This document shows, one piece after another, positions 20,731 through 64,000 of a stretch of DNA of 64,000 nucleotides (position 1 is its first letter; each line of letters begins with the position of its first letter). Origin of the DNA: Lachnospiraceae bacterium (GTDB lineage Bacteria > Bacillota > Clostridia > Lachnospirales > Lachnospiraceae); NCBI GenBank assembly GCA_900766915.1, contig CAAFXE010000387.1:1637-65636 (forward strand), read 5' to 3'. The position numbers and the translations under genes were made by a program. The notes beneath the pieces are model-generated. The model saw only the letters and a list, made by a program, of their open reading frames with translations, ran no database searches and had not been told where the DNA came from.

Positions 20731-20997
20731 TTATTTTCTGAGTCCTAAACGTTCAATTAAAGCACGATATCTGTTGATATCTTTTTTCTTTAAGTATGCT
20801 AATAAACCACGTCTCTGACCTACCATCTTCAGAAGACCTCTGTTAGAGTGGAAATCCTTTGGGTTTTCTTTCATGTGCTGTGTCAGTTCCTGAATTCTTG
20901 CTGTTAAAACTGCAACCTGAACTTCCGGTGAACCTGTATCGTTTGCACATGTAGCATATTCAGCCATGATCGCTGCTTTCTTTTCCTTTGAAATCAT
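20731..20997 (-). CDS. rpsO: 30S ribosomal protein S15
   Basis: 88 aa with the ...[16 protein letters not shown]...[22 protein letters not shown] signature. AGGAGG RBS. Confidence 0.97.
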
Positions 20998-21090
20998 TTT
21001 GACTTCCTCCTTTTTCTTTATAACCGCCTGATACTAAGAACCGGTCGGAGTGTCCAAATCCTGAATATCGGCTAAATCTCATACCCCAAT

Positions 21091-21119
21091 ACAATACCAC
21101 AAGCCCGCTTCTTTGTAAA
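21091..21119 (-). promoter_or_regulatory. candidate rpsO promoter with an extended -10
   Basis: On the minus strand, TTTACA (21119-21114), a 17-nt spacer ending in TGG, then TATTGT (21096-21091). Confidence 0.45.
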
Positions 21120-21175
21120 CATCTTTTTCCACTTTTTTAATTGCTTTTTTCAATCATTATTTCAAATTTACGCCG

Positions 21176-21327
21176 AAAAAACTGCAGTTACCCCACATCG
21201 CAGGCTTCATCCTCCTCAACTAACTCCAAGAACTGCTAATCACTTGCGTGAGAGCACGCTTCGTGAAGCAGTTCTAAGAGTGGATTTTCGGACTCTTCCG
21301 CTTAACGCGACGTGGTGCAACCGCAGT
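21176..21327 (-). repeat. structured rod-like repeat, copy A (RNA-sense strand minus)
   Basis: 21-nt outer arms (21181-21201 and 21307-21327) have 3 A.C mismatches on plus that become G.U on minus. The central domain (21229-21275) matches copies B and C with compensatory changes. A U-tract follows on the minus strand. Confidence 0.75.
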
Positions 21328-21371
21328 CCTTCCGGCTGTGAATCAAAAAATATTTATTCACAAAATTTTCT

Positions 21372-21578
21372 CAAGGAACAGCTGGGACAACCTCTGTCTG
21401 CGTGCCGCATTTAGCCAAACACGATGGAAGTTTTATCAAAACTTCCATCAAGGCCGGAAAATCCGCCTTAGAATTTCTAGGCGAAGCAGGCTCTCCTGCA
21501 AGCCTTTAGAAATTCTTAGGCTAGTTGGAGGCGACGACGCCTGCGGAACGTGGATAGAGGTTGTCTTAGCGTCCCTTG
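21372..21578 (+). repeat. structured rod-like repeat, copy B (RNA-sense strand plus)
   Basis: Outer arms 21386-21408 and 21543-21565 have 3 G.U pairs on plus. An extra perfect 12-bp hairpin lies at 21423-21449, and the central domain at 21470-21516. Confidence 0.75.
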
Positions 21579-21628
21579 AAATAACATGTTTCCGGAATAA
21601 AAAGCAGCTACCGGGAGATACTATCCCC

Positions 21629-22024
21629 ATGAAGCACAAATTTATTATATGCGGCGCCATCGGCTGGTGTGTGGAAGTCTTCTGGACCGGACTTCATTCC
21701 CTGATAAACGGGCAGTGGAAGCTCATGGGACAGTCCTCCCTCTGGATGTTTCCCATCTACGGATGTGCCGCCATCATCGAACCCTTATCCCGCCTCTACA
21801 AAAAGTGTAATGTATTCTTCAGAGGAATCATTTATATGCTCCATATTTTCGCCGGAGAATTTCTTTCAGGGATGCTCTTAAAAAAGCTCGGCATCTGTCC
21901 CTGGGATTATTCTGCCAGTCCCTATAATATTCAGGGAGTCATCCGGTTGGATTACGCTCCTCTCTGGTTTGGGCTGGGGCTTTTTTATGAATTTTTATTC
22001 CGACGCAAAAAGCAGGCCCCTTAG
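21629..22024 (+). CDS. small polytopic membrane protein (resembles the putative ABC-transporter type IV / CmpB-like family)
   Basis: The ORF track starts at 21338, but the first 97 codons read through repeat B. The ATG at 21629 (MKHKFIICGAIGWCVEVFWTG...) has GGGAGA upstream. 131 aa. Confidence 0.6.
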   Translation: MKHKFIICGAIGWCVEVFWTGLHSLINGQWKLMGQSSLWMFPIYGCAAIIEPLSRLYKKCNVFFRGIIYMLHIFAGEFLSGMLLKKLGICPWDYSASPYNIQGVIRLDYAPLWFGLGLFYEFLFRRKKQAP

Positions 22025-63884: not shown

Positions 63885-64000
63885 TCTTTCAGGGGACGCC
63901 TGTGGAACCGGGATACCCTCACTTCGCAGGCTCCATCCTCCTCGACTAATTCAAGAAACACTAACCGCTCACAGGAGAGCCTGTTTCGCGGAGTGTTTCT
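63885..64000 (-). repeat. structured rod-like repeat, copy C (RNA-sense minus; 5' half beyond the window)
   Basis: The central domain (63954-64000) and the 3' arm align with copies A and B. The window ends at the 5' edge of the central domain, so the upstream 5' half of the element is not visible. Confidence 0.7.

Follow-up and report, generated by a model that had tools for sequence, protein, structure and literature searches.

An undescribed family of interspersed repeats with a strand-specific fold in a Lachnospiraceae bacterium

Much is known about structured interspersed repeats of Proteobacteria (REP/REPIN, ERIC, Correia) and of streptococci (BOX, RUP), and REP/REPIN elements have a cognate RAYT gene, encoding a Y1 HUH transposase, that is usually flanked by REPs. 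Lachnospiraceae are a dominant gut family. REPs have been reported mainly in Proteobacteria, Cyanobacteria, Chloroflexi and the Planctomycetes-Verrucomicrobia-Chlamydiae (PVC) group, not in Lachnospiraceae (PMC3733652), while the BOX, RUP and SPRITE repeats of Firmicutes are transcribed and affect neighbouring genes (PMC3049150). For IS200/IS605 elements the target is the template of the lagging strand (PMC6006769), and the surveys of the Breaker laboratory list mobile/repeat sequence candidates (MRSC) that are multicopy and inconsistent in orientation (PMC11109978). Here we analyse a repeat element, T1, in a stretch of 64,000 nucleotides from a Lachnospiraceae bacterium (contig CAAFXE010000387.1, positions 1,637 to 65,636; hereafter the window). 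No description of structured repeats of the T1 kind in Lachnospiraceae was found in Rfam 15 or in the papers searched, and T1 is a previously undescribed family.

Three copies of T1 are present in the window, where a sequence-only reading of the same DNA had placed them and with central-domain sequences exactly as quoted there. Copy A, of the alpha arm type (21160–21347, minus strand; 169.9 bits in cmsearch, model positions 1–186), and copy B, of the beta arm type (21370–21582, plus strand; 180.8 bits), are both full length. Copy C (63886–64000, minus strand; 97.9 bits, positions 71–186) comprises the 3′ two-thirds of an element, i.e. the central hairpin (63954–64000) and the 3′ arm; its 5′ end is cut, as the window stops inside the element. 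The span first proposed for copies A and B, 21176–21578, marked the right locus but was slightly short at both ends, the model giving 21160–21582. Likewise, the pair had correctly been seen as divergent but was loosely worded as “back to back”: the copies are really head-to-head, with their 5′ ends 22 nt apart and their 3′ ends pointing outward. The AT-rich 22-nt spacer between the 5′ ends (21348–21369) contains a weak promoter-like match, TTGAGA-16-TATTTT, directed into copy A. The central hairpin of copy A (21229–21275, minus strand), AGAACUGCU-UCAC-GAA-GCGUG-CUCU-CACGC-AA-GUGA-UU-AGCAGUUCU, has Watson-Crick or G.U pairs at 18 of 18 positions, and that of copy B lies at 21470–21516 (plus strand). 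The additional perfect 12-bp hairpin described for copy B is real; in the repeat search it occupies 21423–21449 of the plus strand (halves 21423–21434 and 21438–21449), inserted in a variable loop, and the same insertion occurs in a second copy, L028:6976–7187. A 19-mer common to the copies, GAGGAGGATGRAGCCTGCG, occurs twice against a chance expectation of 0.02. Folded as single strands with RNAfold, copies A and B reached −83.8 kcal/mol (z −8.4) and −108.7 kcal/mol (z −10.8), respectively, and in neither case was any of 200 dinucleotide shuffles as good.

A pattern in which only the unpaired positions of the central hairpin were fixed was scanned against 185,579 species-representative genomes, giving 93 stretches, nearly all in Lachnospiraceae metagenome-assembled genomes (MAGs) and many of them from mouse gut. 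About 20 of the 93 came from a single genome, CALZFY (“uncultured Lachnoclostridium sp. SRR3176534_bin.24”, the GTDB representative), which is assigned to the window’s species because, save for a few substitutions, contig L086 of this genome is identical to the window locus. A hidden Markov model (HMM) and a covariance model were built on 15 full copies. In 178 kb of the window’s species, 28 strong T1 copies were found, three of them in the unbiased 64-kb window, and one further T1 pair was present in another Lachnospiraceae MAG, L029. Mean identity between copies is 60%, with 5′ arms that are about 47% identical, and for one copy the covariance model scored the sense strand at 185 bits versus 29 bits for the reverse strand. 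The hairpin pattern fixes helix lengths and loop letters, so the conservation of the fixed letters among pattern matches is circular, and the HMM and covariance-model matches relax this bias only partly.

The T1 analysis covers the part of the genome that was readable, in MAG contigs that may hold assembly errors at repeats; assemblies tend to break inside T1 copies, and the related contig L001 also ends in the repeat. All copies are intergenic and none lies within a predicted gene, with genes called by a home-made finder based on codon usage, which missed at least one gene for a small membrane protein (131 aa; confirmed by Pfam). Against Rfam 15, the whole window gave one tRNA as its sole match, the region 21000–21700 gave only microRNA and internal ribosome entry site noise of at most 19.5 bits at E<10, and twelve related loci gave only an S4 leader, located elsewhere. 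The absence of a named family for the element, as stated in the sequence-only reading, thus stands, both at gathering score and for any meaningful match at E<10. Viral contigs contained no match to the hairpin pattern, and a distant blastn search of a plasmid database with T1 and with T2, a second repeat described below, gave no match. In Joint Genome Institute (JGI) metagenomes a T1-specific pattern had 10 matches, all of them chance occurrences in coding DNA of unrelated organisms, and the species is seemingly absent there.

One strand of T1 is read as a folded single strand, and the fold is kept by compensatory change. When the 15 copies were aligned with MAFFT and folded with RNAalifold, 93.6% of the cells were paired versus 76.5% in shuffles, and covariation was 0.518 versus 0.206 (reached by 0 of 500 shuffles) and fell to 0.18 or less when the partner was slid by 1–3 columns. 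A model-based alignment of 31 matches, which leans towards structure because it is fitted to structure, gave 94.3% paired cells versus 73.7% in shuffles, both-sided changes in 32 of 44 pairs, and covariation of 0.513 versus 0.171 (0/500 shuffles reaching it; slid controls at most 0.114). The alignment-free comparison agreed: in 21 of 25 copies the best partner of the 5′ arm was the 3′ arm of that very copy, the pairing score being 32.2 within a copy and 13.8 between copies, with none of 10000 permutations reaching the observed mean.

An A.C mismatch would be a G.U pair on the opposite strand. In the T1 central hairpins, 198 cells comprised 191 Watson-Crick pairs, 7 G.U pairs and no A.C mismatch. 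The arms of 26 copies held 648 Watson-Crick pairs, 90 sense-strand G.U pairs and 12 A.C mismatches (binomial p = 6e-16, a value that overstates independence because some G.U positions are common within arm subfamilies). G.U exceeded A.C in 24 copies and the reverse was seen in none, with the same direction across all arm types. The sense strand had a lower predicted minimum free energy than its complement in 14 of 15 copies, with a mean difference of 12.5 kcal/mol. The sequence-only reading had argued from the three copies for helices that change sequence while keeping their pairing, and for wobble pairs that follow the orientation of the element. The first now holds in HMM and covariance-model copies that far exceed shuffled and slid controls; the second holds in the arm alignments of copy A (25 Watson-Crick, 7 G.U and 0 A.C on the sense strand) and copy B (25, 5 and 0), as well as in the family at large. 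Its core inference, a strand-specific single-stranded fold in an unnamed family, is thereby supported. Selection on a fold of RNA or single-stranded DNA (ssDNA) was borne out, with a caveat to its addition that selection does not act on primary sequence: the internal loops are also strongly conserved in primary sequence.

Each T1 copy forms one long imperfect hairpin of 182–213 nt. It is bounded by terminal inverted repeats, (T)TCAAGGrACAGCC at the 5′ end and GGCGTCCCTTGA(AAG) at the 3′ end, and closed by a stem of about 25 bp that varies greatly in sequence while its arms stay complementary to each other; two main arm types (alpha and beta) and a third were distinguished. The first internal loop carries GCGUUAAGC on its 5′ side and GCCUGCG on its 3′ side. 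A short long-range helix covaries (GUCC/GGAC, GGC/GCC, GGGGGC/GCCCCC) and competes with a possible local hairpin, and a second internal loop has GAAAAUCC on the 5′ side and UAGUUGRAG on the 3′ side. The innermost part is the 47-nt central hairpin, UU-AG(N7)-N4-GAA-N5-CUCU-N5-RA-N4-UU-AG(N7). Strong conservation of primary sequence extends over both pairs of internal-loop motifs and the UUAG, GAA and CUCU of the hairpin. The AGAA/UUCU pairing of the hairpin, apparently constant over the three window copies, covaries elsewhere (AGUAUCACU/AGUGAUACU) in copies found without the pattern. A second form of the terminal loop, CACA (“CCACAC”, with a closing C...C), occurs in L071:2969–3156 and L029:1856–2037, in different species, and is a second loop “allele” rather than random decay.

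Several further features of the copies were recorded. Most contain two purine-rich motifs, Shine-Dalgarno (SD)-like or GGA-containing, in or beside the loops (AAGGAGG, UUGGAGG, GAGGAGGAUG), for example at 21186–21218 (minus strand) and 21523–21541 (plus strand) of the window; that they could bind the 3′ end of 16S rRNA or a GGA-binding protein such as CsrA is pure speculation. In about eight copies the motif TAGTRAnCTAAAG-N3-5-CTTTAG, a short hairpin, follows 20–35 nt past the 3′ end (e.g. L019:3480–3500, L005:2215–2240 and L028:4650–4670), and it may be an optional 3′ module of T1. Two copies, L071:7765–7990 and L023:1–205, are normal through the central hairpin and then continue into unrelated sequence, with the 3′ GCCTGC motif returning about 90 nt later in the former; they look like insertions into T1 or truncations. 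As to other identities for the element, coding of a small peptide was excluded, the indels and compensatory changes preserving no reading frame; a K-turn was dropped because it would need a longer loop than GAA/RA; and hammerhead, twister and pistol were dropped because none of the ribozyme models in Rfam gives a score.

T1 copies tightly fill intergenic spaces, and in nine loci they form head-to-head pairs, a minus-strand copy followed by a plus-strand copy with 5′ ends 22 nt apart for copies A and B and 25–200 nt apart in the eight other loci. As a rule, the two copies of a pair differ in arm type. “Mini” elements, in which the T1 ends (ACAGCC...GGCGTC) surround a short stem and the interior is lost, were found at L095:2281–2313, L025:1648–1672 and L025:4095–4134; the last is joined at a GCCTG microhomology, i.e. 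a deletion between two GCCTG repeats, and two of the “mini” elements are head-to-head with a full copy. The locus of copies A and B varies among strains, and the majority of 23 contigs with an identical S15 have the arrangement of L095 rather than that of the window. Between L095/L097 (2000–2510) and window positions 20990–21640 the flanks are about 99% identical. At the site of copy B, with the same outer junction, L095/L097 carry an alpha copy that forms a reciprocal best-match pair with window copy A (80% identity), on the opposite side and in the opposite orientation relative to it, and at the site of copy A they carry a beta arms-only “mini”. Their spacer resembles the reverse complement of the window spacer (about 20 of 26 positions by eye), and the whole pair looks inverted between the two haplotypes. 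At copy C, L001:1–164 and window positions 63886–64000 share an identical 387-aa neighbour protein, 3′ arm and flank, with a core that is 57% identical over the shared part. This reflects either core-only gene conversion or an assembly chimera; both contigs end in the repeat, although the shared 7-nt junction is too short for a path switch at k=119. As flanks are near-identical while the elements differ, replacement, inversion or conversion of copies far outpaces change in the surrounding genes.

In the window, copies A and B lie between rpsO (20731–20997, minus strand; Pfam Ribosomal_S15) and the gene for a 131-aa PF06541 membrane protein (21629–22024, plus strand), and copy C has a class-V aminotransferase gene downstream of it. 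Among 26 copies, the gene at the T1 3′ end shared the strand of T1 in 14 and had the opposite strand in 12 (Pfam-corrected tally), and the neighbouring genes are unrelated, with no consistent gene association. Between copy A and rpsO there is a promoter-like site with a TG, TTTACA-17-TATTGT (21091–21119, minus strand), which is conserved across haplotypes and situated at the point where haplotype homology resumes. Copy A, being upstream of this site, is thus not the rpsO leader. The rpsO leader of about 90 nt (20998–21090) is likewise conserved across haplotypes and matched no Rfam S15 leader model.

We lean towards reading T1 as a non-coding, non-autonomous interspersed mobile/repeat family of the REPIN/MITE/BOX kind (MITE, miniature inverted-repeat transposable element) with a strand-specific fold, which on balance behaves as selfish mobile DNA rather than as a gene regulator. 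This reading follows from the multicopy intergenic occurrence in either orientation, the inverted pairs, the deletion derivatives, the strain polymorphism and turnover, and the lack of gene association, and the same features favour a mobile repeat, a possibility listed in the sequence-only reading, over a dedicated RNA gene. Under such a model, only copies with a correctly folding sense strand would be recognised and propagated by a trans-acting enzyme, which would most likely act on an ssDNA intermediate, as HUH/Y1 transposases do on REPs and on IS200/IS605 ends. As its putative binding site, such an enzyme would use the conserved central hairpin together with the loops, and selection would act on the element’s own propagation.

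A number of observations weigh against a mobile family of this type. By GC skew, the sense strand of T1 is G-rich in 7 copies and C-rich in 8, so there is no replication-strand bias (7:8), unlike in IS200/IS605. Target-site duplications, examined in 25 copies with two end definitions, were absent from 24, the best direct repeats being 4–7 nt at inconsistent offsets. The 5′ flanks are AT-rich and not conserved past the inverted repeat, and they have no constant flanking tetranucleotide. No transposase of any type turned up in the DNA covered: a scan for IS200/RAYT-type HUH motifs in the open reading frames (ORFs) of about 0.9 Mb, a crude scan over part of the genome, found none. A fold of this complexity, with conserved SD-like loops rich in purines (AAGGAGG, GGAGG), would be equally fitting for an RNA, and the G.U counts are partly non-independent through positions shared within arm subfamilies. 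Finally, no empty site was recovered among the strains compared, and the turnover could be ectopic recombination of old copies. The all-against-all clustering of 674 predicted proteins of related loci likewise returned only orthologous housekeeping genes and no multicopy transposase.

Function at the RNA level is the main rival, and we consider it possible at a clearly lower probability. T1 copies would then be functional structured RNAs, either multicopy small RNA (sRNA) genes or modules acting once transcribed; such modules could, with the same tentativeness, serve as an mRNA stabiliser or processing site, or as a protein or ribosome sponge via their GGAGG/AAGGAG loops. The strong strand-specific covariation with its tolerance of G.U pairs is what an RNA family would display, as are the conserved single-stranded loop motifs with SD-like or GGA-containing loops in most copies, and comparable Firmicutes repeats are transcribed (PMC3049150). 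Signals for transcription of T1 itself are two: the promoter-like match directed into copy A and, in several copies, a −10-like hexamer (TATATT/TATAAT) 12–16 nt upstream of the conserved ACAGCC. The hexamer is mirrored at the other end of the element and is therefore simply part of the terminal inverted repeat; with no conserved −35, an element-borne promoter was rejected, and no terminator-like site was found after T1. Orientation relative to genes is random (14:12), while the strand bias is present in both classes (e.g. the L013 copies, which are antisense to their operon). The deletion derivatives and strain-level replacement further suggest that individual copies are dispensable, and a consistent gene association, as noted, is lacking.

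It is improbable that T1 is an ordinary MITE mobilised by a DDE transposase, in which case the rod would be a by-product of the inverted repeats and internal palindromy. The ends resemble terminal inverted repeats (TCAAGGrACrGCC and GGCGTCCCTTGA), the outer flanks are AT-rich, the size is about 190 bp, there is no coding capacity, and a single copy, in L095, is flanked by a 12-bp direct repeat, AATAACATGTTT. The sequence-only reading had named target-site duplications, together with a lack of strand-specific transcripts, as the mark of a plain MITE; no consistent duplication emerged, since 24 of 25 copies lack one. Moreover, the arms differ between copies yet are complementary within them, whereas a duplex binding site would conserve sequence, and the 90:12 asymmetry of G.U over A.C is unexpected for a constraint on duplex DNA. 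No insertion sequence (IS) with T1 ends was found among the plasmids or related loci examined.

Very unlikely is the proposal that the head-to-head pair is an invertible switch (inverton) between rpsO and the membrane-protein gene, flipping either the promoter-bearing spacer or the whole pair. It draws on the alpha copy of L095/L097, which is on the other side and in the other orientation, on the spacer of these contigs, which is close to the reverse complement of that in the window, and on pairs being the commonest T1 arrangement. The haplotypes are about 20% divergent within the elements and are also set apart by a deletion, so that this is no recent reversible flip. In addition, the pair members are from different arm subfamilies, the promoter of rpsO itself lies outside the pair, single copies and pairs between convergent genes are common, and there is no adjacent recombinase gene. 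Lastly, a cis-regulatory role as leader of rpsO and other downstream genes, be it a riboswitch or a ribosomal-protein leader, as suggested by the sense orientation of all three window copies upstream of rpsO, the PF06541 membrane protein and the class-V aminotransferase, is effectively refuted by the 14 same-strand versus 12 opposite-strand copies with unrelated downstream genes, by the position of copy A upstream of the rpsO promoter-like site, and by strains with identical S15 that carry a different element or only a “mini” there.

The T1 central hairpin also occurs in a second, much commoner repeat, T2, to which most of the 93 pattern matches belong; its hosts are dozens of Lachnospiraceae species, Acetatifactor, Roseburia and Kineothrix among them. 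The T2 unit is modular, comprises three or four hairpins and is often in tandem, with the layout ...CUAACCYCCAUG-hp1-CUCAAAUC-hp2-GUGAGA-CUU-[T1 central hairpin]-UCUCACRCUA (e.g. L021:5150–5500 and L007:7480–7700, among L002–L094); the Rfam 15 search of a T2 array gave noise only. The hairpin strand corresponding to T1 sense was antisense to the genes on either side in 72 of 81 cases and was the C-rich strand in 76 of 81, and the T2 hairpin is without wobble asymmetry (13 G.U versus 11 A.C). The preceding gene has its stop codon within the final 20 nt of the unit’s 3′ end (..TTCTCACGCTA) in about 45 of 67 cases, most often as exactly the terminal CTA (= TAG); in gene sense the unit starts with TAGCGTGAG..., offering TAG, TGA and TAA in three frames. 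At the far end, GGAGG stands just before the predicted start of the next gene, although start-codon choice is biased to such sites. T2 looks like a cassette replacing intercistronic spacers. A T2-like module in one or two copies was found between rpsK (S11) and rpsD (S4) in five species (L008:1483–1793, L030:5498–5659, L011:7666–8000, L038:2620–2944 and L090:5204–5441), and it represents either an insertion of old date that has persisted through speciation or a functional part of the alpha operon.

Rather speculatively, the 47-nt hairpin (UUAG-helix-GAA/RA loop-helix-CUCU) may be the recognition site of a putative Lachnospiraceae-wide single-strand-specific enzyme or RNA-binding protein that drives both T1 and T2. 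If so, one factor would be behind the T1 rods of this species and the T2 arrays of dozens of species, the latter locked to operon stop codons. T1 would be either a new class of single-strand mobile element, with an ssDNA or RNA intermediate and without the hallmarks of the IS200 type, or a mobile structured-RNA family with SD-like or GGA-containing loops. The hairpin module common to T1 and T2 provides a handle for finding the responsible protein. T1 itself is an unusually clean case, combining a large fold, near-perfect compensation and a 90:12 wobble ratio with, yet, no orientation bias; it separates the folding strand from the strand transcribed by the host, and the question of RNA versus ssDNA becomes directly testable. 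On the practical side, T1 repeats break metagenomic assemblies, generate hypervariable intergenic haplotypes among strains that are nearly identical, and might be taken for riboswitches or sRNAs when genomes are screened comparatively.

When compared to described systems, T1 departs clearly from integron attC sites, which occur after cassette ORFs in co-oriented arrays next to intI: no R″/R′ box consensus (RYYYAAC ... GTTRRRY) is present at the T1 ends, and the copies are dispersed in both orientations. Closer are the ends of IS200/IS605 elements and their miniature derivatives, palindrome-associated transposable elements (PATEs), with which T1 shares strand-specific imperfect hairpins with bulges and the lack of target-site duplication; the IS200/IS605 hairpins are recognised as ssDNA. 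T1 differs from these in having terminal inverted repeats and closing into one rod, in having no conserved target tetra- or pentanucleotide 5′ of the left end, and in pairs that hold both orientations, and no TnpA came up in the crude motif scan. The nearest named relatives of T1 are REP/REPIN elements and the MITE-like repeats of Firmicutes, though T1 lacks defining features of each. With REP/REPIN-BIME elements (PMC3116915, PMC3733652, PMC6006769) T1 has in common the multicopy, strictly extragenic distribution, the frequent inverted pairs, an imperfect palindrome with conserved unpaired bases that folds as a single strand, and the strain variation. A conserved tetranucleotide stands at the 5′ foot of the helix in both, UUAG in T1 and GTAG in REPs. 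The T1 unit is much larger, at 182–213 nt with a multi-part fold and a 47-nt central hairpin versus 20–40 nt for REPs, and the REP tag GTAG/CGTC is absent, as the foot of the T1 hairpin is UUAG on both strands and the CGTC of T1 occurs within the terminal GGCGTC, in the base of the stem, not as a REP-like end tag. The members of a T1 pair, coming from different subfamilies, form no joint REPIN hairpin.

MITEs and the BOX, RUP and SPRITE repeats (PMC3049150, PMC3184786) resemble T1 in their Firmicutes hosts and as non-coding intergenic repeats of 100–200 bp, with terminal inverted repeats, a highly paired predicted structure, no coding capacity, and insertion and deletion variants. The modularity is also similar, T1 and T2 sharing one hairpin much as BOX is assembled from boxA, boxB and boxC. 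T1 is unlike them in its arms, which covary instead of being conserved, in the strong G.U bias of one strand, and in having no known IS with matching ends and no target-site duplication; for want of the duplication it falls outside the MITE definition (PMC3049150). The MRSC, finally, are a working category and not a family, and T1 matches no Rfam 15 model and was not seen in association with a transposase. They share with T1 a structured nature, many copies per genome, no consistent orientation to the genes around them, and being drawn as RNA while possibly being relevant as DNA, and are the category that fits T1 best.

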